From: Synechococcus sp. UW140
Lineage (GTDB): Bacteria; Armatimonadota; Fimbriimonadia; Fimbriimonadales; Fimbriimonadaceae
DNA: 64,000 nt
Reading direction: 5' to 3'
NCBI GenBank assembly: GCA_943369295.1
Contig: CALRMU020000004.1
Location: 38,479-102,478 of the forward strand
The position numbers and the translations under genes were made by a program. Below, one piece after another: positions 1-24,674 of the stretch (positions within the stretch are counted from its first letter, which is position 1; every line of letters begins with the position of its first letter). The notes beneath the pieces are model-generated. The model was not told the DNA's origin. It saw nothing but the letters and a program-made list of their open reading frames with translations, and ran no database searches.

Positions 1-716
1 GCCTCTTCCATTTCTCGTAATGATCTAAAGCCGAGCAGTGTTGGTCCCTTTTTGGCTGATGCGGCGAGCAGAGAAAGGTGAGGGTTCGCACCTTTTGCCG
101 CGGTCTGGACCGATGGGTGGTGGCCTAAGGAGTCGCTGCCTCCTAAGGTCAATGGACTGCTCATTACGACTCCGACTCGGCGCGATTCGGCCATAGGACG
201 GAGGCTAGATTCAGTTTCGCCCGATGGAGTCTGCGGGAGCATGATGGCCTCGAAGGCATCGTGGAACTGCCACACGCTCTGTGCCGCCCAGGGTGAGCCT
301 AACACTTGAAGCCCAAAGAACTTGACCAGTCCTTCCTCTCTGGCTTCTTCCATGGCATCCAGGGCACCTGTAATCTGGTGCTCTTCAAGGGCAGTCTTGA
401 CGGGAAGAAAGCAGAATTCAAGGCAGTCTCGACCTAAGGCAGAAAGAAGGGCGAGCAGACTGGCCTGCAGCACACGAGAAGCGGCGGCAGCATCGTTTGC
501 CTTGCTGACCTCACGTCCGATGAGACCGATAAAGGGGACGTCGGCTCCGCGGAGATAGTGCCCCCACATAACTTGTGATGAGGATATTTCGACCGGCGCC
601 TGCCAATGCACGGCCATTTCGGCCATGGCACCTGCCTCACTTAAATCGGCTGGCTGCAGAAGTTTGGGCCAGATCGTGGGGAAGACCTTGTTGGTCCGCC
701 CAAAGGGTTGAATCAC
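1..716 (-). CDS. aldo/keto reductase-like oxidoreductase, partial (C-terminus runs off the window at position 1)
   Basis: Missing from the ORF track because it has no stop inside the window. Manual minus-strand translation from GTG 716 (alternative ATG 626; upstream in-frame stop at 761-759) to position 1 is stop-free. It reads ...RDCLEFCFLPVKTALEEHQITGALDAMEEAREEGLVKFFGLQVLGSPW...ESRRVGVVMSSPLTLGGS..., resembling AKR blocks (ALxxLxxxGKxRxxGxS; GVxVxxxSPLxxG). The + ORF 322..558 is antisense to it and looks spurious. Confidence 0.5.
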   Translation of the reverse strand, partial: MIQPFGRTNKVFPTIWPKLLQPADLSEAGAMAEMAVHWQAPVEISSSQVMWGHYLRGADVPFIGLIGREVSKANDAAAASRVLQASLLALLSALGRDCLEFCFLPVKTALEEHQITGALDAMEEAREEGLVKFFGLQVLGSPWAAQSVWQFHDAFEAIMLPQTPSGETESSLRPMAESRRVGVVMSSPLTLGGSDSLGHHPSVQTAAKGANPHLSLLAASAKKGPTLLGFRSLREMEE

Positions 717-802
717 ATGTTCATTCAACCCGACCAAATAGCAGCAGGGAGGGCCAATCTACCGCGAAGTTCCACGTTACAACTCGGTATCATGGGCCGC
801 TG

Positions 803-1561
803 ATGGACTTTTCATGGCTGTCTGAACCACAAACGTGGATTGCGTTTCTTACCCTTTTGATTTTAGAAATCGTTTTGGGTGTTGATAACATCATCTTCAT
901 CTCTATTCTCTCCGGCAAGCTGCCGCCTGAGCAGAGAAAGAAGGCGTGGCAGATCGGCTTGGGATTGGCTCTGGTTCTGCGCCTGGGACTGCTGTTCATG
1001 ATCAGTTGGATCATGGGATTGAAGGCTGACCTCTTTTTCATGTTCGGTCAAGGAATATCAGGCAAGGATCTGATTCTCATCTTTGGCGGCTTGTTCTTAA
1101 TGTACAAGGCGGTTAAGGAGATTCATGAAAAGCTTGAGGGAGATGAGCATGAAAAGAAGATTGGAGAGGTGACCTTTACCTCGGTCATTATTCAAATCCT
1201 CATCCTCGACCTGGTCTTTTCTCTTGACTCGGTTATCACTGCCGTTGGCATGGTCAAGCATATCGAAATCATGGTCGCGGCGATCCTGGTTGCCGTTGTA
1301 GTGATGTTGGTGCTGGCAGAGAAGATTGCGAACTTTGTTCACAAGCACCCGACCGTTAAGATGCTGGCCTTGGCATTCTTGGTCCTCATCGGTGTGACTC
1401 TTCTGGCTGAAGGAACAGGCAGCAAGATTCCTAAGGAATACATTTATTTCGCCATGGCTTTCTCAGTGCTGGTTGAAGTGCTTAACCTCAAGATGAAGGG
1501 AAGCAAAAAGGTTGTCAAGCTCAACGAAAAGTATGAAGATGAGCCTAAGCCTCTGGCCTAG
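803..1561 (+). CDS. TerC-family integral membrane protein
   Basis: Within track ORF 575..1561. The conserved part begins at ATG 803 (MDFSWLSEPQTWIAFLTLLILEIVLGVDNIIFISIL...). The GVDNIIF and LDSVITAVG motifs and multiple hydrophobic helices are typical of TerC/YoaE-type proteins. The 76-aa upstream extension is Arg/Pro-rich and unlikely to be translated. Confidence 0.8.
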   Translation: MDFSWLSEPQTWIAFLTLLILEIVLGVDNIIFISILSGKLPPEQRKKAWQIGLGLALVLRLGLLFMISWIMGLKADLFFMFGQGISGKDLILIFGGLFLMYKAVKEIHEKLEGDEHEKKIGEVTFTSVIIQILILDLVFSLDSVITAVGMVKHIEIMVAAILVAVVVMLVLAEKIANFVHKHPTVKMLALAFLVLIGVTLLAEGTGSKIPKEYIYFAMAFSVLVEVLNLKMKGSKKVVKLNEKYEDEPKPLA

Positions 1562-10163: not shown

Positions 10164-11744
10164 ATGTCGATAATCGAGATCATTTGGCTGTCTGTCGGCC
10201 TTGTGGTCGGGCTGGTTCTCTCTGCTCTGCTCTTCATGGCTGGCTCCAACAAGCTGAAGGCTAAAGCGGCTGAGGCGGAGGCTGACTTTCTTAAACAGAA
10301 GAGTGAACTGGACAGGAAAATTGCGGAAAGCACCCCAAAACTGGAGCGTTTAGCCAAGCTTGAGGAAGACGTGGTGACGATTCAGAACCAGTTGAGAGAA
10401 TCTGAGTCGAAAGCTGCTACAGAGGAATCTAAAGCTTCTGAGAGGCTAAGGGAACTGGAGGATCGGCGCCAGAGACTGGAGCAGCTTGAGCGAGATTTGA
10501 ACGCCAAGACGGAGATCATCACCCAGTTTGAGACAGAGAAGGCTCGGCTTCAGTCTCAGATGAAAGCGGCTCAAGACAACTTAGAAGAACAGAAAGTTCT
10601 GCTGCGTGAGGCGGAGTTTAAGTTCAAAGATGCCTTCACGGCTCTCTCTTCTGAGGCGCTGAAGTCGAGTCAAGACCAGTTTCTTAAGTCTTCGCAGGAG
10701 ATTCTTAAGCAGTACACAGAAGGAGCCAAGAACGAGTTTGGCAAGAAATCAGAAGAGTTCGGCAAGCTGCTTGACCCCCTGAAAGAAAAGCTGGGAGAAC
10801 TGGATAAACAGAATCAAGAAATGGAGAAGTCTAGGGCTTCAGCCTATTCTGAACTTAAGCAGCAGGTGACTCAGCTTAGCAGTCAACAGGTGGACTTGAC
10901 GAAAGAAACCTCGAGGCTGGTGAAGGCCCTTCAGGATCCTGGCACGGCAGGAAGCTGGGGAGAAATGCTTCTGGAAAAGGTGGTCGAAATGGCTGGCCTT
11001 CCCGAAGGAATCATCTTTGAATTGCAGGAAAGCACGACGACGGAGGAGGGAAGACAGAGGCCGGATATGGCTATTCGTCTGCCTGGCGACCGCTGCCTTA
11101 TCGTTGACAGCAAGGCCCCGCTTAAGGGATATCTTGATGCCCTTGAATCAGAAGATGAGACGATTAAAGCGGGTCTGCTGAAGGAGCTTCCGCGGAAGCT
11201 GCTGGGGCACGCTCAGGAGCTGAAGAAAAGAAGCTACGATAAGAGAGTCGAGACCCCAGACTTCACCGTCATGTTCATCCCCAGTGAATCAGCGTTCCGA
11301 GTAGCTTTGGAGCAGAGACCTGGATTGATTGAGGAAGTAATCGATCTGCGCGTAATTATGGCGACTCCTTCGACGATGCTGGCTCTGCTGAAGGTTGTGG
11401 CCTATGGTTGGCGGCAGGACAAGCTGACTCAGACTGCCAAAGAGGTGCAGGAACAGGCTCAGAGATTGTACGAAACGGTGGTCACTCTGATGGGTCATTA
11501 CGAAAAGCTTGGTCGAGCGTTAGGCAGCGCCGGCAAGGCCTACAATGAGTTCGGATCGTCCCTCAACTCGCGAGTGGTTCCGGCCGCCCGCAAGTTCAGA
11601 GACTTTGGGATTTCGGCCAAGAACGAAGTCTCGGAATCTGAGCTGATCGAATTTGCCCCGAGACCCCTTGTGGCTCCCGACTTTCAGTCGAAAAACGCTC
11701 TGCCCGCCGGGGACACGGGCCTTTTCGGTGAGGAGGCCGAGTAG
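10164..11744 (+). CDS. rmuC: DNA recombination protein RmuC
   Basis: 526 aa: N-terminal TM helix, long coiled-coil (E/K/Q-rich), then the RmuC nuclease-like C-terminus (RPDMAIRLPGDRCLIVDSKAPL...FTVMFIPSESAF). Confidence 0.85.
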   Translation: MSIIEIIWLSVGLVVGLVLSALLFMAGSNKLKAKAAEAEADFLKQKSELDRKIAESTPKLERLAKLEEDVVTIQNQLRESESKAATEESKASERLRELEDRRQRLEQLERDLNAKTEIITQFETEKARLQSQMKAAQDNLEEQKVLLREAEFKFKDAFTALSSEALKSSQDQFLKSSQEILKQYTEGAKNEFGKKSEEFGKLLDPLKEKLGELDKQNQEMEKSRASAYSELKQQVTQLSSQQVDLTKETSRLVKALQDPGTAGSWGEMLLEKVVEMAGLPEGIIFELQESTTTEEGRQRPDMAIRLPGDRCLIVDSKAPLKGYLDALESEDETIKAGLLKELPRKLLGHAQELKKRSYDKRVETPDFTVMFIPSESAFRVALEQRPGLIEEVIDLRVIMATPSTMLALLKVVAYGWRQDKLTQTAKEVQEQAQRLYETVVTLMGHYEKLGRALGSAGKAYNEFGSSLNSRVVPAARKFRDFGISAKNEVSESELIEFAPRPLVAPDFQSKNALPAGDTGLFGEEAE

Positions 11745-12311
11745 GTGGCGGAAGGAAGGGCCCTAAGGAAGAAGAAGGAAGTCCGCGACTTGATGAGAGA
11801 GTTCGCGGCTGGCCACAACCCGGCGCAAGAAGTCACTTTCCTCCTGCAAGATTGGTCAGATGCTTACAACGTTGGGGGGCTGCTCAGGGTCGCTGACGGG
11901 CTGGGAATCAAAAAGCTTTACTGCACGGGCAAGACTCCTCAGCTGCCCAATCCTATGATTCCTGTCACCTCGATGGGGGCCCATAGAAGGGTTGAAATGG
12001 AGTACCACAAGGTTCATGAAGAGGCGGCAAAAGCGGCCATCGAGGACGGATGGACCTTGATCGGGGTGGAGATTGCCGAGGGCGCCGAACCCCATTTTGA
12101 TTTCGACTACCCCCCAAAGACCTGCTTGGTTTTAGGGGCGGAAGGAGCTGGAGTCTTCCCCAGCGTTCTCAAGCATTGTAAAGGTTCTGTGTTTATTCCT
12201 ATGCAGGGCAAGGGGCGCAGCCTCAATGTTCACGTATCAGGAGCGGTCGTCGCTTTTCACGTCATGGCTGAATCGTGGCGGGCAGGTGGAACCAAAACAA
12301 GTGAAGATTAG
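11745..12311 (+). CDS. SpoU/TrmH-family RNA 2'-O-methyltransferase
   Basis: 188 aa; the GTG start directly follows the rmuC stop. Motifs: YNVGGLLRVADGLGI...LVLGAEGAGV...IPMQGKGRSLNVHVSGAVVAF (SPOUT knot motifs). Confidence 0.8.
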   Translation: MAEGRALRKKKEVRDLMREFAAGHNPAQEVTFLLQDWSDAYNVGGLLRVADGLGIKKLYCTGKTPQLPNPMIPVTSMGAHRRVEMEYHKVHEEAAKAAIEDGWTLIGVEIAEGAEPHFDFDYPPKTCLVLGAEGAGVFPSVLKHCKGSVFIPMQGKGRSLNVHVSGAVVAFHVMAESWRAGGTKTSED

Positions 12312-12320
12312 TTCAATTAG

Positions 12321-12349
12321 TTAGCGGGATTGAAAATTTCGCTTATAAT
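12321..12349 (+). promoter_or_regulatory. putative sigma70-type promoter of the Cys-rich operon
   Basis: TTAGCG-17 nt-TATAAT, followed 9 nt later by a strong AGGAGG and ATG 12370. Confidence 0.4.
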
Positions 12350-12369
12350 AAACATAACAGGAGGCAAAG

Positions 12370-12726
12370 ATGCACCACAGAATCATCAGAATCGGGCTCG
12401 CACTGATGCTTCTTGTTGTCGGGATTGCACCTGGGTTTGCGGCGGCATTTAAGTGCTGCTGCGGCCCGAAAGAACCCGAAATCAAAGCCAAAACCTGCTG
12501 TCCATCCTGCAGCTGTGAGCTGAAGGCAGACACCGAACACAAGGGCTCTACGGAGTTCGTTTGGGTTCCGGTTGAGCTGGAAGTTGGTTTGGTGCCTCAG
12601 CTTGTTAAGCTGTCAGTAGATGCCTTTTTGGTCCAGCCGAAAGCTTTTCAGGCTATTCCAGAACCCCAAGGTCATTCGCCCCCCGAGCGGGTCCTTGGCC
12701 GCGCTCCCCCTCTTTTCTGTTCCTAA
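12370..12726 (+). CDS. secreted Cys-rich small protein (hypothetical)
   Basis: 118 aa with a strong SD (AGGAGGcaaagATG). A signal peptide MHHRIIRIGLALMLLVVGIAPGFAAA is followed by FKCCCGPKEPEIKAKTCCPSCSCELK, which has 7 Cys in 25 residues. Confidence 0.6.
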   Translation: MHHRIIRIGLALMLLVVGIAPGFAAAFKCCCGPKEPEIKAKTCCPSCSCELKADTEHKGSTEFVWVPVELEVGLVPQLVKLSVDAFLVQPKAFQAIPEPQGHSPPERVLGRAPPLFCS

Positions 12727-12787
12727 GGAATTTTGTCCTTTGGGGGCGCAAGCCTCCCCTACCTGAACAGAACAAAAAGAGAAAACA

Positions 12788-12991
12788 ATGTCTTCAATCA
12801 TTTTCGGCCTCATGCTGGCCGTCGCAAACATCACTACCCCCGCACTTGCCACCAACAGCATTTCGTGCTGCGGAACCAACTGCTGCAAGGCTTGCGCCTG
12901 CGCCTGCGTTGAGAACTGTGGATGCTGCAAAGGTGGAACCTGCACTTGTGTGAACTGCACGGCCTGCGGCTGCTGCAGCGCCAAGCCCTGA
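12788..12991 (+). CDS. secreted metallothionein-like Cys-rich peptide (hypothetical)
   Basis: 67 aa. A predicted 21-aa signal peptide (MSSIIFGLMLAVANITTPALA) precedes a 46-aa region with 16 Cys in CC/CxC/CxxC arrangements and no aromatic or His residues (TNSISCCGTNCCKACACACVENCGCCKGGTCTCVNCTACGCCSAKP). Confidence 0.6.
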   Translation: MSSIIFGLMLAVANITTPALATNSISCCGTNCCKACACACVENCGCCKGGTCTCVNCTACGCCSAKP

Positions 12992-13034
12992 TCCACGCCA
13001 AGCAATCACCCTGCCCTAAAGGGTTAAGGTGAAA

Positions 13035-13080
13035 GATTCCGGACAAACTTTTTTGAGAGTCCGGAATCTGCCTTTCCTTT
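13035..13080 (+). terminator. intra-operon hairpin / possible leaky terminator after the Cys-rich peptide gene
   Basis: GATTCCGGA-caaacttttttgagag-TCCGGAATC followed by tgcctttccttt. It lies between the peptide stop (12991) and the next start (13091). Confidence 0.4.
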
Positions 13081-13090
13081 AGATGGCCCG

Positions 13091-13702
13091 ATGAATCAAA
13101 CTAAAAACAAGATGATTTCTACATTCGCAATTGCCGCAATTCTCATGGGGAGCCCAGTTCAGGCTGCTCAAGCACCTGCTCCTCTCAACTGCCCAATCAT
13201 GCTCAACGGCGTCGCTGATATGAAGAGCAAGCCCGTTGTGATGGGTGGCTTTTCGTTCCACTTCTGCTGTCCTGGCTGTGATGCCAAGTTCAAAAAAGAT
13301 CCCTCCGGATCGATGAAGAAGGCGGTCGAAGCCAAAAAGACCGTCGGAGTTTCTCTGTTCGACCCAGTCAATGGGGTTCGAATGGATGCCGCCAAAGCCA
13401 AGGGCACGGCCGACTTTAACGGAATTCGCTACTACTTTGCGTCTCGAATCAACGCGCAGAAGTTCTCAGAAGCTCCGGCAAGTTTCACCGCCACTCCCAA
13501 GCAGGAGGTCCTCTACTGCGTGGTGATGAAGCAGGCGATCAGGAGCTACGAAGCCGCCCATTCTTATGTTGATCATAAGGGCGTCCGCTACTACATGTGC
13601 TGCGCTCCCTGCAATGGTCAGTTTAAGGAGAAGCCAGATACCTTCATCGCCAATGGCAAGCCAAGGTCTGCAGGGTTCGCAATCGAGGCTGCCCAAGGAT
13701 GA
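13091..13702 (+). CDS. periplasmic protein with three YHS/TRASH-like metal-binding modules
   Basis: 203 aa with signal peptide MNQTKNKMISTFAIAAILMGSPVQAAQA. Modules: CPIMLNG...GGFSFHFCCPGCDAKFKKDP; DPVNGVRMD...NGIRYYFASRINAQKFSEAP (Cys-less); CVVMKQ...KGVRYYMCCAPCNGQFKEKPDTF. These match the YHS pattern (C..M......Y.G..YYFC...C...F...P). Confidence 0.7.
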   Translation: MNQTKNKMISTFAIAAILMGSPVQAAQAPAPLNCPIMLNGVADMKSKPVVMGGFSFHFCCPGCDAKFKKDPSGSMKKAVEAKKTVGVSLFDPVNGVRMDAAKAKGTADFNGIRYYFASRINAQKFSEAPASFTATPKQEVLYCVVMKQAIRSYEAAHSYVDHKGVRYYMCCAPCNGQFKEKPDTFIANGKPRSAGFAIEAAQG

Positions 13703-14418
13703 TGAACTCAGCTAAAGTTTGTGTTGGTTTGAGCCTGGGGCTTGGACTGATCGGCACGGCTTTGGCCCAGGACCCCGCACTCGGTGAAGAGCCAGTCAAT
13801 CCCAGACTGGCCCCCACTTGTGCTGGCTGTGCCGGAGCTGCCGCAAACCTGGAAGGAGGCAAAGTGATGTGGGAATGGCAGGCGACTGTCCGCTACCTCA
13901 ACACCACAGACCCTGCAACCCGGTGGCGGTTTGTCTTGGACAAAAAGATCACCGAGCGGTTTACTGTCGGCATTGAGCGTGGCGGCGGTGAAGGGATGAA
14001 GCACATTGTGGGCTCATCCTGGCAGGATCGTCTGTCTCACTCTGATGGTCGGGCGATCATGCCTCGGGCTACCTGGTTCATCACTCCAGAGAAAGGCAAC
14101 CTTCCTTCGGCAGTGCTTGGCATGGGCAGCGACAGGCTTTCTATCCCCCGTGGGCAGGCTGCTTTTCTTACCTTTGCCAAGCTGATTCCAGGCAGTGATT
14201 TCACTCCTTTCGTCAGCTTTAAGTGGTCAACTTACAAGCAGCGCCTTGCCTTTCCCTTTGGGATCAACTGGCAGTTCGCTCCACAATGGACGGCCCAAGC
14301 AATCAACGACGGGGAATACACCCATCTGCTGGTAAGCCATCAGAAGGGTGACTTGGGGCTGAGCTTGGTCTTGGCTAGGTCTCGAAACCTCGGCTTCCAA
14401 ACGAGCTTCAGTTTCTAA
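13699..14418 (+). CDS. small outer-membrane beta-barrel-like protein (hypothetical)
   Basis: 239 aa; ATGA start/stop overlap with the YHS gene. It has a signal peptide (...GLIGTALAQ) and a CAGC motif near the N-terminus. The C-terminus LGFQTSFSF shows alternating hydrophobics and a terminal Phe (OMP beta-signal). Confidence 0.55.
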   Translation: MMNSAKVCVGLSLGLGLIGTALAQDPALGEEPVNPRLAPTCAGCAGAAANLEGGKVMWEWQATVRYLNTTDPATRWRFVLDKKITERFTVGIERGGGEGMKHIVGSSWQDRLSHSDGRAIMPRATWFITPEKGNLPSAVLGMGSDRLSIPRGQAAFLTFAKLIPGSDFTPFVSFKWSTYKQRLAFPFGINWQFAPQWTAQAINDGEYTHLLVSHQKGDLGLSLVLARSRNLGFQTSFSF

Positions 14419-14436
14419 AGATCGTTTGTGTTTCTT

Positions 14437-14484
14437 GATGGCGGTTTTCAGCTATGCCAATGGGCAAAAGCGAAAACCGCCATC
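14437..14484. terminator. bidirectional terminator hairpin between convergent genes
   Basis: GATGGCGGTTTTC-22 nt loop-GAAAACCGCCATC, a 13-bp perfect stem, between the stops at 14418 (+) and 14491 (-). Confidence 0.65.
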
Positions 14485-14490
14485 TGGCGT

Positions 14491-15036
14491 TTAGGGTCTT
14501 GGGTTGAGAGCGATCCTTAAGATTCCACGCGGGTTGTCTTCCGCCAGGCCAATCTTGCGCGAGACAATCATGTCCTTAGCTCCCCCGCTGAGGGTGGCTT
14601 TCCATGAAGCACGTGATAATTCAGGCAGCCTCTGACCTCGAAGAGCTGCATCTGTCGTGCTCAAAACTTCGCCATCAAGATTTGTAAAGGTAACAGACCT
14701 AAAGCTGCCTTCTCGTGCAATTCTTTGCAGAATCTGATCAAGGCGTGAAATATCCGACCTGTAGACATCATTCGAAAGCGCTGCCCCGACTGCATTGGCT
14801 GTCTGAAGCTGGCCTTCGCGCCATGCGGCAGAAGCCTGCCAGTTGCCTCGTGTGATCAGGATCCAAGAGAAGATCACTAAGGCAAACACAGAGACGAGCA
14901 CTCGCACCCAGGCTCTCTGCTTCCACATTCTTACAAAAACGGCCAGTGGCGAAGCCCTTTTAGCTTCGGGTGAGGCGGATGTAGAGGCTTCTCCTAAATC
15001 TTGTGAAGGTGCCTTTGTTTCTTCCTTGTCAATCAT
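14491..15036 (-). CDS. hypothetical membrane-anchored protein
   Basis: 181 aa with one TM helix (VRVLVSVFALVIFSWILI). It lies 48 nt downstream of tsaD on the same strand. No recognisable domain. Confidence 0.5.
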   Translation of the reverse strand: MIDKEETKAPSQDLGEASTSASPEAKRASPLAVFVRMWKQRAWVRVLVSVFALVIFSWILITRGNWQASAAWREGQLQTANAVGAALSNDVYRSDISRLDQILQRIAREGSFRSVTFTNLDGEVLSTTDAALRGQRLPELSRASWKATLSGGAKDMIVSRKIGLAEDNPRGILRIALNPRP

Positions 15037-15084
15037 AGACTTCAGTCTAGTCTATCGCAGATAGCAGTCTCGGTGATTGACTGA

Positions 15085-16149
15085 TCAAAGGCTGCTCAAC
15101 GCTCCGCTTGCCGAAACATCCAGGCTCCAATCGGATCTTTCTCCTCTGGCAAACCTGAATGATCCAGCAAGTCCAATCATTCCAGCGTTGTCCGTGCAGA
15201 GATCAAACGGCGGGCAGTAGAAAGGAATTCCCCTGGCCGATGCCACAGAGGCGAAAGATTGTCGAAGGGCGACATTGGCCGAAACCCCGCCCGCCAAGCC
15301 AAAACTCTGGCAGTCAATCTCGTCCAGGGCAGCCGTTGCCTTTTCCGTCAGGGTCCTGACGATCACGGCCTGGAGGCTGGCACAGGCATCAGCAACGTTG
15401 AGGTTTTGTCCTTCGGCTTCGACCAAACGCAGCACCGCAGTTTTTAACCCGCTGAAGCTGAAGTTGAAAGGATCCTTTTTCAAACCTCGTGGCAGCTGAT
15501 ACCGCTTAGGGCTGCCGGTCAGGGCCGCTTCTTGAACCACTTTCCCGCCTGGAGTCCCCAATCCCATGAGCCTTGCGGCTTTATCAAAGGCTTCACCAGC
15601 GGCATCATCCAAGGTCTGGCCGATCAGCTCAAACTTGCCCCATTCGCGCACCAGAACCAGCTCTGTGTGGCCACCGCTGACGACCAAGATCAGCATAGGC
15701 AGAGGAGGAACTTCACCCAGCTCTTCGGCGCAGAGAGCCATGACGTGTCCTTCAAGGTGATTGACTCCAAGCAATGGCACTCCCCAAGCCGAAGCCAGAC
15801 CCTTGGCTGCGGTCAAGCCAACGCTTAAAGCTCCGACCAAACCAGGGTTGGTCGTCACGACGATTCCAGAAGGTTTTTCCCCCGCGAGAGGCAGGAGCGC
15901 TTCTTCAATCACGGGGAGAATCGCTTCGACATGGGCTCGTGAGGCAGCCTCAGGAACCACGCCTCCCCACTGGGCATGGAGGTCCAGCTGGCTGGCAACC
16001 AAGTTGCTCAAAACCTTTCTGCCGCAGACAAGGGCGGCGGCGGTCTCATCACACGATGTCTCGATTGCCAAAAGGGGGTGGGGCCAAAACACGGGCTCAC
16101 TTATTGTGACTCCACAGGCCAAGATACCCAAGGCTGCAGAGTCTCGCAA
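15085..16149 (-). CDS. tsaD: tRNA N6-adenosine threonylcarbamoyltransferase
   Basis: [16 protein letters not shown]..., [14 protein letters not shown] and GLAGGVSAN motifs of Kae1/TsaD. The true start may be GTG 16092 ([16 protein letters not shown]), which would remove a non-conserved 19-aa extension. Confidence 0.88.
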
Positions 16150-17772: not shown

Positions 17773-20700
17773 ATGAAGCGTTCGCCAGCAGTTCCGCGTT
17801 TATCGTGGATGGCTTGGATGCTCGTGGCGACGGCCATGGCATCTGCGCAGGGTCAACCTGAAGCGACAGTCACGTCGACTTCGGTTGAATCTGGCGGCAA
17901 AACCTACGTCGAATCCATCCGACTCAGCCCCAATCGCTTTTCTCAGGCGCTTCGTTTTGGGGCCATCAAGCGCGGTTCAGAAACTCTTGACCTAGGCGGA
18001 AAGAGGCTGGCTAAGGGAACCGATTACGAAATCGATTACCCCTCCGGCACGATCTACCTGAAAGTTCCAGTTCAAGAAGGTCAGCAGCTTCGCGTCAACT
18101 ACCGTTACGATGAGGAAAAAGGCGCGGCTGGCAGCTTCGGCATGGCCGGCACCACCTCGACCTCTGGCTTCAACGGATTCAAGTTCGATTTTGCCCAAGG
18201 CAACTCAGCTTTTGTCGGCCTCGGGATGACCGAAAGATTGGGTGACGGGACGGTGCTGAGCAGCAACGTTTACGGAATCTCCAATTCGTTCAGCCTCATG
18301 CCCGGCACGAGTCTCAAGGGCCTCTTCATGGTAGGTCAAAGGGATAACACTCAGTCCACCGACATGCTGACAGGCGCCTCCAACCGATCTTCGGTTGAGG
18401 AGGGGCAGGGCAGAGCCTTGATCCAGAGCCTTGAGAGCCGAGTTGGCAAGAAGGGCAAATTCACTGCCTACTTCCAAGACATCGATTCTCGATTCGGCGG
18501 CTTCCAAGCCTTGGGTGCGAATGGCTACACCGGCGACCAAGTCGGGCAGCTTTCGCGAGAAAAGGGCCTCAAAAGGACTGCTCTCGGCTTCGATAACATT
18601 GGCACCGATTCCGCCAACATTTCCAACAGTCTCCAGACTGTCGGCGACGACAACGGCACCATCACGCGGCGAACTGCAGCGGCTGAAGGCAAGGGCTTTA
18701 AGCTGAATTGGTGGAGCCAGGATGTCGATAAAGGATTCACTCGCTTTGCTGACATTGGCGCTGCCGACTGGCAGCAGATGGGCAAGGAACGCGGCTTCGT
18801 CCGCGAAGGAATGAGCGGATCGCTCGGCTTTGCTGGTGGTCAAACTCAGTTTTCTACACTCAAGCTCGATTCTGAGCAGGGTGGCCTGGCTCGTTCCAGC
18901 CTCGGAATCACGGCGGGCCGTTGGAAGATCGGTTTCAGCGAGCAGAGAGTCGATCAGGGTTTTGTCCGGTTCGGCGACCTGAGAGGCGACGAGTGGAATG
19001 GAGCTCAGCTTCAGCACGAACGCGGCCTTCTTCGCAGAAACTACGCAATCGATGGTGAGGTTGGCAAGGGCCAAAAGGTTGCCGCCAGCCAGGGAGTCGT
19101 TCGGACCTCCGACGCCGATTTCTCCAGCTTGGACATGACTGCCAATCTGGGCAAGTTCTCCATTGAGCACATCAATCGCACGGTTGACAAGAGCTTTAAC
19201 CGCCTTGGCAGCTTGGGCGGAGACGTTAACGCTCATGCCGCAGCTGCCTTGAAAGTCAGCTCATCGGCCAACCCTCAGGGGCACGATATCGGGGCCTTTT
19301 TGAACAGCGCCGGACTCGAAAGAAGCTCTTGGCGGCTTGGATTCAACTTTGATAAGGGCAGCTCAGTCTCCCTTCACACCTCAGATATTAAGGGCAAGGA
19401 TGACAAGCTGGGTTCTAAGGAACTCAACATCAAGACCCCCAACCTGAACCTGAAGGTTAGAGATCAGAAGACTGGCGATAAGTTCAGCGAAGTCAGCAGG
19501 CTCATGCCGTCAGAGCATGGGGTGCATGGTGCTTCGGTCGGCCTTAATCGCCAGGACATCAGCGGAGATATGAAGCTGGGTGGATCTAGAACCCTGGCTT
19601 TCTCCAAGACTTCCGCCAACGATCTGGGCGGCGATCTTTCACGCGAAACCTTGAGCATGAGAGACAAGGGTCTGGAACTTGACTACAAGTCGCGCAATGT
19701 CGACAGCAAGTTTCAGGGCCTCGGCTCCTTCGCAGACCCCGAAAGAGATCTCTTTAGAGCCCTTTCTGGCTACAAGACTCAAGAAGGTCGTCTGAGATGG
19801 GCTCCTTCCAAGTCTCTCAGCATTGAATCTGACCTCTGGGGTTGGGAAGAAATTCTCGGCTCAAAGGAGCGCTTTACCGAAAGGACTCTCGTTCGATGGC
19901 AGGCCGATAAGGCTACATCTTTTGAGATGCTGAATACCGAGCATCGCTTCGGAGATGAGTTCGGCGATCAGGTCAATCAGAGAGGACAGAAGTTCACCCT
20001 CGGAAGAGACATTGCTTCCTTTGGAAAGCTGACCCTCAGCCAGGATGCTCAGACCTACGATGGCAGCGGCGAAAAGAATCCTGACTCCCTGACTAGGTCA
20101 GTCAGCTTCCAGGCCAAGCTGAACCCCAAGACCGGCTTTAAGACTGAGCAGTCTGAAACAAGATTTGAGGATGGAACCCGCACCACGGTTCTTTCCAATA
20201 CCCTCAGCACGGATCTCACCAACCGGGCTGGAGTCAGTGTTACCCAAACCAACGTCAACCGAGACGGCGAGAAAACTGACGAGACTCATCGCCAGTATGG
20301 TTTTTGGTATGACTTCGGCAAGGGAATCAAGTTCAACTACGGCTACCAGAGAGCCCTGAACGGCGAAGAAGGCAGCCTGAACAGCAAGACTGAACTGACT
20401 CCTGGCACGGTCCAGGATGTCAAGATCGACTCTGCTTCCTATAGTCAAGTTCGACAGGATGACAGGCGAGATCAGACCATCGGCCGATTCAGTCTAGCCA
20501 GCGCCAAAGCCATGAACTGGGGAATCCTCCAGGATGTCCGCTTCTCATTCAACGCCGATACTCACCGCGATCAGTATCGATGGCAGAGAGAGAACAGGTC
20601 CATGAACTTTGCGGCATCGCATGACGCCATGGGATTCGGATTTGACTATAACAGTCAGGTCAGCCCCACCGGTGATCGAGCCATTGACCGATTTTTCAGC

Positions 20701-21261
20701 TTCACGACGGATAGAACCAACAAGGCAGATTTTGTTGGCTCCTTCCGCTACGGTGTGCGAACCCTCCCCACCGACCAGACAGTCATGATTCGTGACTACA
20801 GCCTGGCTTGGAAGCCCGCCGACAACGTTGTGTTCAAGCATGCCGTTGTCACCAACGCTCTGGCAAACCAGAACGGGGTTCTGCTCGGGACGGTTCATAC
20901 CCCTCTGAGAAGCAACATCTGGAGCTTGGACATCCAGAACTCAAGGAGCCTTAAGGCTGGACTTTTCTGGAAGGAAAATCAGGACGAAGCTCGGTTCTTG
21001 CGGAGCAGAGAAGGCGGGATCAACTTGGTGCTCAATGCCAACAATCCTTCGCCCATCAGCCTGAGCTACGGGGTTCAGCAGGTGGACGATAGGGGAACAA
21101 GAAAGACCGCTCACAAGTTCGGATTCATCTTCAATCAGAGACCCGGACCCAACCAGAGCTGGAACATCCTTTTTGAGAATCTTAACTGGCAGCACGGTCG
21201 ACCAGAGAACACCCTGCTTCAGAACTGGAACGCTCGAATGGATTACTCCTGGCGATTCTAA
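17773..21261 (+). CDS. large outer-membrane protein with internal ~80-aa repeats (hypothetical)
   Basis: 1162 aa with signal peptide MKRSPAVPRLSWMAWMLVATAMASAQG. The motif [QR]xVDxxFxxFxxLG occurs six times at aa 235, 316, 391, 469, 564 and 641. Each is followed ~27 aa later by an (E/K)RG(L/F)xR-like motif. The C-terminus NARMDYSWRF is a typical OMP beta-signal. Confidence 0.75.
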   Translation: MKRSPAVPRLSWMAWMLVATAMASAQGQPEATVTSTSVESGGKTYVESIRLSPNRFSQALRFGAIKRGSETLDLGGKRLAKGTDYEIDYPSGTIYLKVPVQEGQQLRVNYRYDEEKGAAGSFGMAGTTSTSGFNGFKFDFAQGNSAFVGLGMTERLGDGTVLSSNVYGISNSFSLMPGTSLKGLFMVGQRDNTQSTDMLTGASNRSSVEEGQGRALIQSLESRVGKKGKFTAYFQDIDSRFGGFQALGANGYTGDQVGQLSREKGLKRTALGFDNIGTDSANISNSLQTVGDDNGTITRRTAAAEGKGFKLNWWSQDVDKGFTRFADIGAADWQQMGKERGFVREGMSGSLGFAGGQTQFSTLKLDSEQGGLARSSLGITAGRWKIGFSEQRVDQGFVRFGDLRGDEWNGAQLQHERGLLRRNYAIDGEVGKGQKVAASQGVVRTSDADFSSLDMTANLGKFSIEHINRTVDKSFNRLGSLGGDVNAHAAAALKVSSSANPQGHDIGAFLNSAGLERSSWRLGFNFDKGSSVSLHTSDIKGKDDKLGSKELNIKTPNLNLKVRDQKTGDKFSEVSRLMPSEHGVHGASVGLNRQDISGDMKLGGSRTLAFSKTSANDLGGDLSRETLSMRDKGLELDYKSRNVDSKFQGLGSFADPERDLFRALSGYKTQEGRLRWAPSKSLSIESDLWGWEEILGSKERFTERTLVRWQADKATSFEMLNTEHRFGDEFGDQVNQRGQKFTLGRDIASFGKLTLSQDAQTYDGSGEKNPDSLTRSVSFQAKLNPKTGFKTEQSETRFEDGTRTTVLSNTLSTDLTNRAGVSVTQTNVNRDGEKTDETHRQYGFWYDFGKGIKFNYGYQRALNGEEGSLNSKTELTPGTVQDVKIDSASYSQVRQDDRRDQTIGRFSLASAKAMNWGILQDVRFSFNADTHRDQYRWQRENRSMNFAASHDAMGFGFDYNSQVSPTGDRAIDRFFSFTTDRTNKADFVGSFRYGVRTLPTDQTVMIRDYSLAWKPADNVVFKHAVVTNALANQNGVLLGTVHTPLRSNIWSLDIQNSRSLKAGLFWKENQDEARFLRSREGGINLVLNANNPSPISLSYGVQQVDDRGTRKTAHKFGFIFNQRPGPNQSWNILFENLNWQHGRPENTLLQNWNARMDYSWRF

Positions 21262-21319: not shown

Positions 21320-21396
21320 GTCTGGCGTCAGCCATGTTCAAGGCATTCGGACTCAACTCCAGTCTCGCTGCATCATCATCCGGTATGGTCTTAGCT

Positions 21397-22308
21397 ATGC
21401 AAGAGGTCACTTTCGCTGGTGCCAGGTGCGCCAAGCTGGCCAACAAACAGCTTGAACTTTACGCCTCGCTCGATGTCGGCCCGCGCATTATTGGTCTGCA
21501 GCTGGCAGGGGAATCTAACAACATTCTCAAGACCTATCCCGACCAGCTGGCAAACCCCAATCCAGATCAGTTTGAACTCTATGGCGGCCACAGGTTGTGG
21601 GCTGCCCCCGAGATCGCCGGCTTTACAGATGAGCCGGATGGAATGCCGCTTGACAAGGCTCACATGGATGGCGGAGCTCTGGTTCTTGAAGGTGCATTGG
21701 GCGTAAGCAAGCTAAGAAAGCAGATCCGAGTTTGGATCGACAACAACCAGGTTCATCTGCAGCACACCTTAACCAACGAAGGAGAAGAGCCAGTCGAGGT
21801 GGCTCTTTGGGCGCTTTCGGTGATGGAGGCTGGCGGAGTTGGCCTGACCCCTCAGGGACCCTACGTTCCCCACGGAGAGACTCTTGATCCGGAGCGTCCC
21901 TTGGTGATGTGGCCCTACACCCGCATGAACGACCCAAGGGTCAGATGGGGCGATAGGATGATCCGCCTCAATCAGCACCCTAGCGGCGGCCCCTTTAAGT
22001 ACGGAGCCTGGCTGAAGGAAGGTCTTGCTGGCTACTGGCGAAACAATCTTCTATTTCTCAAGGCTTTCCCGCCTGGCCGAGTCGACAACCTGCTCGACTT
22101 TGGCTGCAGCTTCGAGACCTTTACGAGAGAAGAGATGCTTGAAGTCGAATCACTTTCTGAGAAGGTGGTTTTGGCTCCTGGCGAAAGCGCCTCTCACCCC
22201 GAGACCTGGGCGATCTTCGCTGCCGATGCTCCTCCTTTTGGTGAAGATCAAGGCCGCGATTGGTTTGATCACCATGGTCTGAAAATGAGCCCTTGGTTTT
22301 TGGATTAA
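21397..22308 (+). CDS. hypothetical protein, possibly aldose-epimerase-like fold
   Basis: Track ORF 21334..22308. ATG 21397 (MQEVTFAGARCAKLANKQLELYASLDVGPRIIGLQ...) clears the upstream terminator. The pattern resembles DUF4380/mutarotase-like proteins, but I cannot verify this. Confidence 0.5.
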   Translation: MQEVTFAGARCAKLANKQLELYASLDVGPRIIGLQLAGESNNILKTYPDQLANPNPDQFELYGGHRLWAAPEIAGFTDEPDGMPLDKAHMDGGALVLEGALGVSKLRKQIRVWIDNNQVHLQHTLTNEGEEPVEVALWALSVMEAGGVGLTPQGPYVPHGETLDPERPLVMWPYTRMNDPRVRWGDRMIRLNQHPSGGPFKYGAWLKEGLAGYWRNNLLFLKAFPPGRVDNLLDFGCSFETFTREEMLEVESLSEKVVLAPGESASHPETWAIFAADAPPFGEDQGRDWFDHHGLKMSPWFLD

Positions 22309-22372: not shown

Positions 22373-24316
22373 TTAAGAGACTGAGATGGAGTAGATGGCG
22401 GCGAAGCCTTTTCTGCTTTCATCAGAGACCCTGATTCTGATTAAGGGATTTTTGGCAGAATCGAGCTCTAGGACTACGCTCTGATTCGATCTGACAAGAG
22501 ACTGCAGGCTTCGCAGAGGTCTGCCCGTCACGGCATCTTCGATGTAAATCTTGGTGCCTTCTTCCAAGCGAAATCCGAGAGTCAACCTGCCTGAAGCGAA
22601 GGGACGCGAGACCGCCTGGCCGCGAAGCTCTCGTTGATTTTCGTCACCTGTGGCGGCGATTCCTGCGAGCTTGTCAGCTCCCACCCAGCCAGGGCCACCC
22701 ATCAAAGTCCAGTCTGCCTGGCGGTTTGGGGCGTTCAATGAAAGAGTGGAGGTCGCGGTGAACCTTGCCCCTCCGGCAGTGCCTCTAAATTCCACCTCGC
22801 CAGCAAGCTTCATCCCCTTTTCCAAAGGAAGCTCGAACCCTTCTGGGCCGATGACTGCTGGCTTGACTATGCCTCCGGGCAGAACAAATGAGCCACTGGG
22901 ATTAAGGGGGCGTCCAGGAATCTGCAGGAAGGTCGGGGAGGCCACGATCTTGATGCCTTGGGCGTCGTAGGCGAGTACCGGAGGCTTTACTCCGATCGGG
23001 GCGGCGGGTTCGCCCGGCATCCGGGTTCTGCCAGCTGGCGTCACAAGGTCGATGTCGTAGATCCCTTCGTAGGGAATCCTCATTTGTTTGAGCAGAGTGA
23101 TTGGCCCTTTCTCGGTTAACGTCAAAGCGTCAACCGGTTCGGTCCAGCCTTTTTCTGAAGTGTAGATCGACCCGAAAGTCTGGATGATATCGAGGATCGA
23201 GCCCATAAACTGGCCTTCGCCATGGGTGAATCCGGGCCAGGCATCCGTCCCTTGTCGAGCCAGCATCCAGGGAGTCGAGGCAAATCGCCCCATCACTAAG
23301 CCATCCTGCCAAAGGCCGTTTTGTTCTCCTGACGACATGGAATAGAGGCCATGGCTGGTCCGCAGCATCTGCACAGCCTTGCGGAAGTTGGTGGGGGAAC
23401 TCTGCTGCGAGGTAGCGGTCAGCAGAGCTGGCAGGTACCAAGCCTCCCAGGCTGGCCTGTCTCCGGCCAAAGCCAGCAGACCCTTGGTCGGGACTGGGGC
23501 TGCACGAAGATCATTTTCGGTGGCTTGGACGGCAAGGACCTTATCGACCAGTCGATCTCTCAACTGAATAAGACTCACTTTGGCTTCGGCCGGTGCAAAG
23601 GAGAGGGACTGGTTGATTGCCTCAATTGCTGCCAGTTGGTCTCCAGCGGTTCTGGCATCGTTTTCCAGCCAGGCCAGATTCCCGGAGACTCTCTGCTTCA
23701 AGGCTGCTTGGATTGGGCTGCCTTCTTTGGCCAACTTGGCCATCTGGGCAAGGGAGCCGAGTTCGTTGGGAGTGATCTTTTGACGATTGCTGGCACGGGA
23801 TGCCGCCCATGCTTCGGTCTGCTTTGCCAGAGCTGCCGCTTGGGGATACTCAGGGAAGTCTGCGGCATAGCGTGCCGCCCATCCAGCACCCTGCAGCAGA
23901 TCAACGTCACCAGCGGTGACTCCATCAGGGAGGATTTTGACCGGACCTTCCAGAATTCCAGAAGCCACAACCAGATTCATCATTTGGTCGGCGGTTTGGC
24001 TCCAGCCTGTCTGCTTAAGCTTCTTAGACCAGGCTTTCATCCAGTAGGCTGATCGAATCCAAGCGCCATCGATGACACGGCTTTTGGGGGGCAGCACACC
24101 CTCCAGTCCGTTGAGAGAGACAGGCACCAATCCTTGGCGGCCAGAGCCCGGCTCACCCGGCAGACGGATAAAGGAGTAGGCCCAGCGGACCGTTCCGATG
24201 AGTGGAGTGGTTTGGGGGAAGGCGCTTTCTAGCGGAGCAGGGGAGGGAAGGGGGGGAGTCTGTCCGATTAGTGTGGGCGCAATAGCTGCCATCGCCGCGC
24301 TTAGAACAAGGCTCAT
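22373..24316 (-). CDS. large secreted hypothetical protein
   Basis: Track ORF 22373..24364. ATG 24316 gives a signal-peptide-like N-terminus (MSLVLSAAMAAIAPTLIGQ). No motif recognised. Confidence 0.6.
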   Translation of the reverse strand: MSLVLSAAMAAIAPTLIGQTPPLPSPAPLESAFPQTTPLIGTVRWAYSFIRLPGEPGSGRQGLVPVSLNGLEGVLPPKSRVIDGAWIRSAYWMKAWSKKLKQTGWSQTADQMMNLVVASGILEGPVKILPDGVTAGDVDLLQGAGWAARYAADFPEYPQAAALAKQTEAWAASRASNRQKITPNELGSLAQMAKLAKEGSPIQAALKQRVSGNLAWLENDARTAGDQLAAIEAINQSLSFAPAEAKVSLIQLRDRLVDKVLAVQATENDLRAAPVPTKGLLALAGDRPAWEAWYLPALLTATSQQSSPTNFRKAVQMLRTSHGLYSMSSGEQNGLWQDGLVMGRFASTPWMLARQGTDAWPGFTHGEGQFMGSILDIIQTFGSIYTSEKGWTEPVDALTLTEKGPITLLKQMRIPYEGIYDIDLVTPAGRTRMPGEPAAPIGVKPPVLAYDAQGIKIVASPTFLQIPGRPLNPSGSFVLPGGIVKPAVIGPEGFELPLEKGMKLAGEVEFRGTAGGARFTATSTLSLNAPNRQADWTLMGGPGWVGADKLAGIAATGDENQRELRGQAVSRPFASGRLTLGFRLEEGTKIYIEDAVTGRPLRSLQSLVRSNQSVVLELDSAKNPLIRIRVSDESRKGFAAIYSISVS

Positions 24317-24674
24317 AGGTTCATTAACATTCTGCAGCGAATCTTCTATCCCAAGTCGGGCCAAAGTCCGCTGTGGTTACAATGGGGTCATTATTGTTCT
24401 TGAGAAGCAGATAGAAATGGATTCTGGCAAGGGAGATTCCTTTGCGAGTCAAAGCTTGCCGGGCCAAAGAGTTTTGGGGGAGTAAAGGATATTCGCCTCG
24501 AAGAAGGGAAGGTTGGTTTAGCCCTTTCACATGGATCGGCAAGGAGAGTGACTGCGGCGGAAGCAGAGGAGTTGCACTGGTCTCCAAACTGGCCGAAGTG
24601 AATAGGTCCGGCTTATGACTGGCATCTGCAAGGATAACCCCCTGACTAACGGCGCCTTTGGCTAAACTAAACAA

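Follow-up and report, generated by a model that had tools for sequence, protein, structure and literature searches.

The question raised by this locus is what four small co-directional genes (g1 to g4) do together in the cell envelope, and in particular what purpose is served by the Cys-containing product of the first of them. The window (the whole stretch of 64,000 nucleotides that was analysed) originates from a Fimbriimonadaceae (Armatimonadota) metagenome-assembled genome, whose closest genome match carries a g4 of 88% identity. An initial annotation had read the locus as an envelope-targeted operon in which g1 and g2 were both metallothionein-like cargo, g3 was a YHS protein and g4 was a barrel; open reading frame (ORF) calls returned all four genes at the positions given there (Table 1). 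The assignment to the envelope with Cys-type metal chemistry was upheld for the YHS/TRASH protein and the small outer-membrane barrel. The role given to g1, however, had to be revised, as only its signal peptide, a CC...CxC cluster, a spacer of 59-64 residues and an R[A/G]PP motif are conserved, and a stem joins that motif to the next ribosome-binding site. Combined, the results suggest that the operon probably serves metal handling in the envelope, most likely of copper, and is switched at the level of translation by an arrest peptide, g1. Judged by the pattern of its sequence, g1 would most likely be a leader peptide of the CutF/CruR kind, which stalls and serves as a sensor of metal or redox state. 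Four features are added here to the initial annotation: the RAPP near the C-terminus of g1, the stem from RAPP to the g2 ribosome-binding site, a conserved hairpin between g2 and g3, and the union of g3 and g4 in a single protein in most relatives.

The evidence for this role begins with what is kept in the g1 family. The protein has 8 Cys, and its sequence after AAA is FKCCCGPKEPEIKAKTCCPSCSCELK. In an alignment of 16 homologues (alignment A2), g1 is approximately 20% identical (17-25%) to homologues outside its own clade, and beyond the signal peptide the only invariants, counted as seven, are CC, C-x-C, one Pro (P104) and the R..PP within R[A/G]PP. Motif spacing was measured in 22 sequences of 114-150 amino acids (aa; lengths by the ORF calls used), and the distance from CxC to R[A/G]PP was 59-64 residues in 22/22, the sequence in between being unconstrained. 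The R[AG]PP motif ends 1-7 residues before the C-terminus, the sole exception being L026 (L-numbers denote related loci that were compared with the window operon), which has LSPP. A g1-like gene, where present, always heads its operon, and the spacer to the next gene measures 51-86 nucleotides (nt; 16 loci). Of the 55 other long ORFs of the window, one contains R[AG]PP. Across GTDB proteomes RAPP is found in 0.11% and RGPP in 0.05% of proteins; the motifs are excluded from proteomes, and small secretory ORFs that lie upstream of metal, TonB and thioredoxin genes show an enrichment of them at the C-terminus (PMC12992588). Among known bacterial arrest cores, RAPP and RGPP are the strongest; ribosomes of B. 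subtilis and E. coli both stall at RAPP (PMC10951233), and how RAPP arrests the ribosome is established (PMC10951233, PMC12992588). g1 matched nothing in Pfam or NCBIfam, and a phmmer search against 1.8 billion representatives gave only two hits.

In many g1 homologues another RAPP-like element precedes the terminal R[AG]PP by 8-16 residues (A2 columns ~160-170; for example TRAPPDIGPSPDSPRGPP, ANAPPGSPPQESASRAPP and CRGPPDWQIVQSRTYRGPP, with HSPPERVLGRAPP in the window), which may be a tandem pause site. In L026, a lineage of 57% identity, the g1-like gene (159-578) is followed directly by a barrel gene (672-1406) with no YHS gene. Its degenerate LSPP stands at the expected R[AG]PP position, 62 residues after CGC, and could reflect either decay of the switch or an assembly error.

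A second line of evidence comes from the messenger RNA. In the minimum-free-energy fold and in the centroid fold alike, nucleotides 12710-12722, which lie directly 3' of the RAPP codons, pair with 12765-12781, where g2 has its ribosome-binding site. In most lineages the segment 3' of RAPP pairs likewise with the next ribosome-binding site; comparable stems were found in L001, L007, L014/L015 (arms GUCUGAUCAC with GUGAUCAGAU), L016/L020 (CUCCGUGAUCA with UGAUCACGGAG), L017, L018, L021 and L030, the last a perfect stem of 12 base pairs (bp), and the arms are unrelated between lineages. Duplexes between a 22-nt footprint and a 28-nt ribosome-binding window were scored with random genomic windows and shuffles as controls, and over 11 lineages the Fisher combined p was 3e-5 against the genomic controls and 2e-8 against the shuffles. 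RNAalifold recovers the stem in the window clade, where L033 and L039 have G-C in place of a U-A pair, a compensatory change. In relatives without g2, the gene whose ribosome-binding site is covered by the stem is the YHS-barrel gene.

From the gene structure, motif conservation, spacing, stems, predicted folds and gene fusion computed here, we infer the following course of events. A strong Shine-Dalgarno sequence would drive translation of g1, and the product would be exported co-translationally via Sec until the ribosome stalls with Arg-Ala-Pro at the P site and Pro at the A site, over the RAPP codons. With approximately 61 residues between CxC and the peptidyl-transferase centre, the Cys cluster as a whole (C29-C49) would then lie past the tunnel and SecY, in the periplasm. 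With no stalled ribosome, the two arms of the stem would pair and hide the ribosome-binding site of g2, whereas a stalled ribosome would cover the 5' arm, free the site and permit translation of g2, or of the YHS-barrel gene in relatives. The duration of the stall would be set by the exposed Cys cluster, through metal binding or disulfide formation; precedents are CutF, in which copper prolongs the stall, and CruR, in which copper relieves it. The downstream products would comprise a Sec-exported, thiolate-rich periplasmic buffer (g2), a periplasmic protein of three YHS/TRASH modules (g3) and an outer-membrane channel of 12 strands (g4) whose periplasmic mouth bears a CxxC and through which transport may take place. 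Copper is the best guess for the sensed metal, slightly favoured by analogy because Cys-type CutF-like proteins mostly head copper genes. Induction by metal excess, as in CutF-like systems, would fit somewhat better than repression because g2 would be an exported sequestering protein.

This proposed switch can be compared with two described copper-sensing nascent peptides. CutF, from the cutFOG operon of Rhodobacter capsulatus, combines a Sec signal peptide with a CxxxC motif and, at the C-terminus, a Pro-rich one; the Shine-Dalgarno sequence of cutO is shielded by a stem-loop, and periplasmic copper prolongs the stall and so turns cutO on (PMC9973294; bioRxiv 10.1101/2025.02.05.636593). Like g1, CutF and CutF-like proteins are Sec-signal proteins of <150 aa with a Cys motif (the signal in g1 being assigned by a heuristic) and a PP motif within the last 15 residues, and their gene is the first of a metal-related operon, with a short spacer to the next. 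In CutF, the stem-loop that hides the next ribosome-binding site can be opened by a stalled ribosome, and the stem at g1 is comparable. Under the published rules for CutF-like proteins (PMC9973294), g1 has the appropriate length, PP motif, spacer and Cys site, and by heuristic the signal peptide. The two differ in that CutF has a spacing of 45 residues, carries a PPP run and regulates a multicopper oxidase, whereas g1 has a spacing of 59-64 residues (approximately 16 longer), carries RAPP/RGPP, precedes YHS-barrel and metallothionein-like genes and belongs to the phylum Armatimonadota.

CruR of Bordetella pertussis (Bp2923, DUF2946) has an export signal, an invariant CXXC and, at 45-residue spacing, RAPP three residues from the C-terminus; it heads copper-linked operons with outer-membrane transporters and often AhpC_TSA genes, and copper relieves its stall, after which Rho terminates transcription (PMC9426467). 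The C-terminal RAPP near the stop and the Cys motif at a fixed distance are shared with g1, as are, by the heuristic for g1, the export signal and the frequent inclusion of outer-membrane protein and AhpC/TSA-type thioredoxin-fold genes in the operon. The CruR switch is Rho-dependent and has a 162 bp spacer, whereas the shorter spacers of the g1 loci hold a stem hiding the ribosome-binding site. The CruR signal peptide is dispensable for regulation, and g1 has no hidden Markov model (HMM) match to the CruR family. The Cys cluster of g1 would be fully periplasmic rather than in the SecY vestibule, because 61 residues exceed the ~30 (tunnel) plus ~17 (membrane) given by the CutF authors. Additionally, the RAPP-type arrest peptides ApdA, ApdP and ApcA (SecM-like monitoring substrates) are, as g1 is, small secretory proteins that carry R-A-P-P close to the C-terminus and are encoded upstream of the controlled gene (PMC7897499, PMC10951233, PMC10987492). 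These peptides monitor Sec or YidC and stand before sec or yidC genes, whereas g1, with its invariant Cys cluster, precedes metal-type envelope genes. The main texts of the CutF paper (PMC9973294) and of the proteome-wide RAPP study (PMC12992588) contain no mention of YHS, Armatimonadota or metallothionein.

The product of g2 is the candidate buffer whose synthesis the switch would control in the window. As had been described, its predicted mature part of 46 aa contains 16 Cys (35%) and no aromatic or His residues, and its make-up (C, K, G, A, T, D and E, with CKC, CxC and CC motifs) is, to judge by sequence, typical of metallothioneins. That g2 is conserved, probably exported and metallothionein-like by composition was likewise supported. 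The family ranges over 61-157 aa with 30-35% Cys: 67 aa and 16 Cys in the window and in L040, 65 aa and 15 Cys in L001, 63 aa and 14 Cys in L038, 61 aa and 13 Cys in L007, 77 aa and 18 Cys in L039, and 157 aa and 41 Cys in L033, whose mature part of 136 aa contains 30% Cys and no aromatic or His; from L004/L005 the 3' end only is available. The gene lies between g1 and g3 in every readable member of the split subclade (the subclade of the window, in which g3 and g4 are separate genes) and is confined to that subclade. Among the variants the N-terminal hydrophobic segment and the Cys positions are kept, indels are in frame, and 22-23 codon changes fall at the third position vs 9-13 at positions 1 and 2. 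In L033 a 93-nt in-frame tandem repeat (2.1 copies, 92% identity) lies within the Cys-rich part. A spurious ORF was considered as an explanation of g2 and was ruled out by the conservation in at least seven lineages, the codon-position pattern and the in-frame indels.

Searches with four g2 variants found no Pfam or NCBIfam family at E-values up to 10, metallothionein and RiPP (ribosomally synthesized and post-translationally modified peptide) precursor families included, and g2 had no match in a word-indexed search of 5.8 billion proteins or when JGI metagenomes were scanned in back-translated form. Its exact sequence is missing from protein collections because gene callers never called g2, and its homologues were reached only via the neighbouring genes. 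The bacterial metallothioneins characterised so far are not known to be other than cytoplasmic. Csp1, an exported protein that stores copper, is a four-helix bundle exported by Tat and is unrelated in form to g2. The metallothioneins SmtA/BmtA, MymT and PmtA, as well as Csp1, resemble g2 in being small and Cys-rich, and g2 has CC, CxC and CKC motifs, lacks aromatics and varies in length through repeats. It is set apart from the described metallothionein families by the absence of a Pfam match and by its predicted Sec-type signal peptide.

Two further features of g2 were observed. A GC-rich hairpin occupies the spacer between g2 and g3, and hairpins of lineage-specific sequence are always found 3' of g2, also in L001, L007, L033, L038 and L040; such a hairpin could be a partial terminator or a stabiliser of the messenger that favours g2 over g3 and g4. 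The N-terminal half of g2 (12788-12900; signal peptide, CCG...CC.ACAC) aligns weakly with that of g1 (12370-12520; signal peptide, CCCG...CC.SCSC), with a shuffle p of 0.02-0.04 in the window and L033, and g2 may be derived from a partial duplication of g1 without the arrest tail.

For g3, the three YHS modules that had been claimed were recovered using the family models PF04945, PF08394 and PF24273 at curated cut-offs. Pfam YHS (PF04945) matches in three stretches (E = 7.9e-14, 51.8 bits, cut-off 30.3), TRASH_HVO_1752_C scores 33.5 (cut-off 27) and Arc_trans_TRASH 28.6 (cut-off 27). An AlphaFold2 (AF2) model, with a predicted local distance difference test (pLDDT) score of 87, agrees in showing three beta-hairpin/helix (beta-beta-alpha) modules, of which modules 1 and 3 carry CP[IV]M...CCxxC and module 2 has no Cys. 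By sequence, the PDB gave only weak YHS matches to phenol hydroxylase, and Foldseek with the g3 model found nothing significant.

The overlap of g4 with g3 (ATGA) and its terminal GFQTSFSF are as originally noted; the window protein ends in ...FSF, and relatives end in GF or AF. Its proposed identity as an outer-membrane barrel was supported by an AF2 model of ~12 antiparallel strands (pLDDT 77, ~88 in the barrel), for which the probability-1.00 Foldseek matches in the PDB were all transmembrane barrels: a designed transmembrane barrel (TMB), FapF, KdgM, NanC and Omp33. No Pfam or NCBIfam family was found for g4. An alignment of g4 barrel homologues, fused and split (alignment A1), has 40 invariant columns, and the barrel domain bears a PTCAGCAG motif at its periplasmic end. 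Most relatives encode g3 and g4 as one polypeptide, and the g4 homologues at 44-51% identity are proteins of ~407 aa with a signal peptide, two or three YHS modules, PTCAGCAG and the barrel. Because they are fused to the barrel in relatives, the YHS modules would be periplasmic appendages of the outer-membrane barrel, with the CxxC at the junction. The split form, with overlapping genes and a dedicated g4 signal peptide, recurs in L001, L004, L007, L033, L038 and L040, and L030 has an independent split. A frameshift artefact was considered as the origin of the split and was ruled out by this recurrence in six loci and by the independent split in L030. The C-terminal tail of g3, KPRSAGFAIEAA (13660-13702), aligns with the PTCAGCAGEA fusion junction with both Cys lost; it is apparently a relic of the junction, which suggests gene fission via duplication of the junction. 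The YHS-barrel family was found only in Armatimonadota, at 19 genome loci and 5 metagenome loci.

By analogy, PcoB would be the closest functional counterpart of g3 plus g4. PcoB and CopB belong to copper operons, and each is an outer-membrane barrel of 12 strands whose N-terminal region, in the periplasm, binds metal (PMC9210255, PMC12509749), as g3/g4 would; the termini of the PcoB/CopB barrel face the periplasm. They have no sequence relationship to g3/g4, their tail is disordered and His/Met-rich whereas g3/g4 have folded Cys-type YHS/TRASH modules plus CxxC, and the form found in the window is split into two genes.

Comparison of the related loci did not support the four-gene order as ancestral. 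The conserved core in relatives is instead a g1-like gene, a YHS::barrel fusion and a thioredoxin-fold gene, and in the window subclade the fusion is split, the thioredoxin gene is absent and g2 is a lineage-specific insertion between g1 and g3. A ResA/DsbE/TlpA-like thioredoxin is encoded directly downstream of the fusion in at least 14 relatives; it has an EFWATWC motif, matches Pfam Thioredoxin, AhpC-TSA and Redoxin, and scores below the cut-offs of NCBIfam ResA, DsbE and TlpA. This conserved third gene is an argument for the strongest rival, in which g1 senses thiol redox and not metal. On this reading the Cys cluster of the nascent, exported g1 would report how oxidative folding stands in the periplasm, the pull of disulfide formation would end the stall, and the operon, with the thioredoxin of relatives, the Cys-rich g2 of the window and a barrel that bears CxxC, would serve thiol homeostasis of the envelope. 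The enrichment of RAPP/RGPP small ORFs upstream of DsbA-family and thioredoxin-domain genes (PMC12992588) points the same way, as does the fact that the CutF authors weigh disulfide formation and copper binding as competing forces. We nevertheless consider thiol-redox sensing in place of metal sensing unlikely, as YHS/TRASH modules are metal-linked domains, the make-up of g2 (CKC, CxC and CC, rich in Lys and Gly, with repeat expansion) is typical of metallothioneins and not of redox proteins, and CutF-like proteins with Cys motifs mostly head copper homeostasis genes (PMC9973294).

A second rival holds that g2 is a disulfide-rich secreted peptide (a bacteriocin, RiPP or bufferin-like product) or an export substrate of the g4 barrel, and not a metal buffer. 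Bufferins are Sec-exported, Cys-containing RiPPs. The leader of g2 is signal-peptide-like and its Cys are many, and the g4 model resembles, among other barrels, the polypeptide channel FapF; bufferins are also named beside metallothioneins as copper chelators (PMC12509749). The resemblance to FapF is, however, the generic likeness of 12-strand barrels (template modelling score, TM, 0.4), and the barrel family occurs without g2 in most lineages. The absence of a nearby maturase or ABC exporter, already stated in the initial annotation, was confirmed over ~10 kb, and RiPP-maturase neighbours, which would have favoured a modified peptide, were found neither in the window nor in ~20 related loci; the genes looked for in the window flanks and syntenic relatives were MNIO/DUF692 (with DUF2063), radical-SAM, YcaO, LanM and ABC genes. 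Together with the lack of any NCBIfam or Pfam precursor match for g2, this leaves the secreted peptide a very improbable reading. It is just as improbable that all four products are structural members of a sequestration or trafficking module, with g1 and g2 both metallothionein-like carriers and no regulation. The 8 Cys and signal peptide of g1 and the compact, co-directional operon speak for this reading; against it speak a g1 protein that is nearly unconstrained outside CC, CxC and R[AG]PP yet fixed in length between these motifs, an invariant C-terminal RAPP and a stem to the next ribosome-binding site that have no carrier role, and the precedent of CruR and CutF, which are short-lived and act in cis (PMC9426467, PMC9973294).

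Several observations weigh against metal handling controlled by a g1 arrest peptide. The Cys motifs differ from those of the described sensors: CutF has CxxxC where g1 has CC...CxC, and CruR has CXXC at ~45 residues (within 1-2) from RAPP where g1 has CxC at the longer distance. No bridge to DUF2946 (PF11162) was found, as none of the 16 g1 members matches it in Pfam at E-values up to 10, and a g1 profile search of 5.8 billion proteins returned the family itself only, with no hit carrying a Pfam domain. The YHS-barrel gene occurs without any g1-like ORF in L009-L011, L013, L023, L025, L034 and L036. The stem is individually weak in L012, L019 and L022, and in L006 and L008 the ribosome-binding site is hidden by a local hairpin whose 5' arm lies outside the footprint of the stalled ribosome. 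In the oxidising periplasm the 16 Cys of g2 could form disulfides in place of binding metal, and YHS Cys clusters can hold structural zinc, as in the phenol hydroxylase structures. The signal peptides of g1 to g4 were all assigned from the sequences by the simple heuristic alone, and in g2 the basic n-region is missing.

By that heuristic, a hydrophobic core and an AxA-type site are present at each of the four N-termini, and in g1 these are accompanied by a basic n-region (RIIR), with a core of 13 residues and the site between AAA and F. As in g2, a basic n-region is missing from g3 when it is started at 13112, the position equivalent to the Met at which g3 starts in close relatives.

Among the loci with a YHS-barrel gene and no g1-like ORF, other regulatory genes were observed nearby. 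A divergent OmpR-family two-component system adjoins the operon in L025 and L036, and a response-regulator/GGDEF gene lies upstream of the YHS::barrel gene in L009-L011 and L034. The two-component system of L025 was considered as a metal-specific regulator and set aside; it is of the OmpR family and scores below the heavy-metal family cut-offs, and therefore no metal specificity is shown.

Table 1. Positions of the genes and sequence signals of the g1-g4 operon in the window.
Feature	Position	Strand	Description
-10-like box TATAAT	12345-12350	+	Same position as TATACT or CATAAT in L001, L007, L033
Shine-Dalgarno AGGAGG of g1	12361-12366	+	Strong; CAGGAGG unchanged across four relatives
g1	12370-12726	+	118 aa; signal peptide (heuristic) aa 1-26, Cys cluster C29-C49, RAPP aa 111-114
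Candidate sensor Cys-cluster codons of g1 (CCCGPKEPEIKAKTCCPSCSC)	12454-12516	+	CC and CxC invariant; ~61-80 residues from the putative arrest site
Candidate arrest codons RAPP (CGC GCT CCC CCT)	12700-12711	+	R[AG]PP invariant in family
Stem, 5' arm	12710-12722	+	Directly 3' of RAPP, where a ribosome stalled at RAPP would have its footprint
Stem, 3' arm	12765-12781	+	Covers AAAGAG ribosome-binding region of g2
g2	12788-12991	+	67 aa; predicted mature 46 aa
GC-rich hairpin in g2-g3 spacer	13016-13082 (inner stem 13034-13068)	+	-37.9 kcal/mol, z = -4.2
g3	13091-13702	+	203 aa; likely true start 13112, giving 196 aa
g4	13699-14418	+	239 aa; own signal peptide (heuristic) aa 1-23
PTCAGCAG motif (CxxC) at periplasmic end of g4 barrel domain	13813-13836	+	Nearly invariant in fused and split homologues
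Hairpin between g4 and convergent 181-aa gene	14437-14484	both	z = -4.3 (+), -5.8 (-)

The operon had been described as lying between a TATAAT-type promoter and a strong bidirectional terminator, and this description was borne out in part. The TATAAT box is conserved, and the hairpin downstream of g4 is strong on both strands. A consensus promoter scan found no full -35/-10 sigma-70 promoter and no canonical -35 box and did not call the TATAAT box; the hairpin lacks a clear U-tract, and the terminator scan, which did not call long-loop hairpins, left it uncalled. An Rfam search of 11700-15200 gave no real match.

The flanking genes are housekeeping genes (an aminotransferase, RmuC, a SpoU methylase, TsaD and a GFO/IDH/MocA oxidoreductase) plus a 181-aa hypothetical; RmuC, the SpoU methylase, the 181-aa hypothetical, TsaD and the GFO/IDH/MocA oxidoreductase also flank the syntenic relatives. 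The 181-aa gene (14491-15036, minus strand) converges on g4 and keeps this position in all close relatives, where it occupies, on the opposite strand, the place of the thioredoxin gene of other lineages; its product has one N-terminal hydrophobic segment and weak Pfam hints only (LapD_MoxY_N, E = 1e-3). An antisense ORF of 130 aa (12613-13005, minus strand) overlaps g2 and the 3' end of g1; the GC-rich Cys/Ala codon repeats of the sense strand most likely account for it. A TerC-family integral membrane protein (575-1561, plus strand; Pfam E = 1.6e-48) is encoded ~11 kb upstream and is probably unrelated to the operon. The large downstream ORFs at 17773-21261 (1162 aa), 21334-22308 (324 aa) and 22373-24364 (663 aa) have no Pfam family at E <= 1e-5, and the 1162-aa gene is syntenic in relatives.

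Taken jointly, these parts would make g2 the first Sec-exported bacterial metallothionein, growing by repeats from 46 to 136 mature residues and gated by a periplasm-exposed, metal-sensing RAPP peptide whose sensor sits ~61 residues from the arrest site, outside SecY, in company with an undescribed family of YHS-bearing outer-membrane channels confined to Armatimonadota. We regard this combination as possible, though somewhat less likely than not. The regulatory principle itself is known, whereas the g1 sequence family, its geometry, the phylum and both types of cargo (the YHS::barrel and the exported metallothionein-like protein) appear to be undescribed.

It was only in 2022-2023, and mainly for Pseudomonadota, that regulation through nascent peptides that sense metal (CutF, CruR) was described, and the present locus would extend the principle to Armatimonadota and to an unrelated family. 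With ~61 residues vs 45 between sensor and arrest site, and a sensor that would be clearly periplasmic, the g1 family therefore provides a natural test of how spacing relates to the sensing compartment. The fusion of a barrel to Cys-type YHS/TRASH modules suggests a role for periplasmic YHS domains. If g2 does bind metal in the periplasm, it would offer a compact, repeat-tunable metal-binding module for biotechnology, and the view of bacterial metallothioneins as purely cytoplasmic proteins would change.

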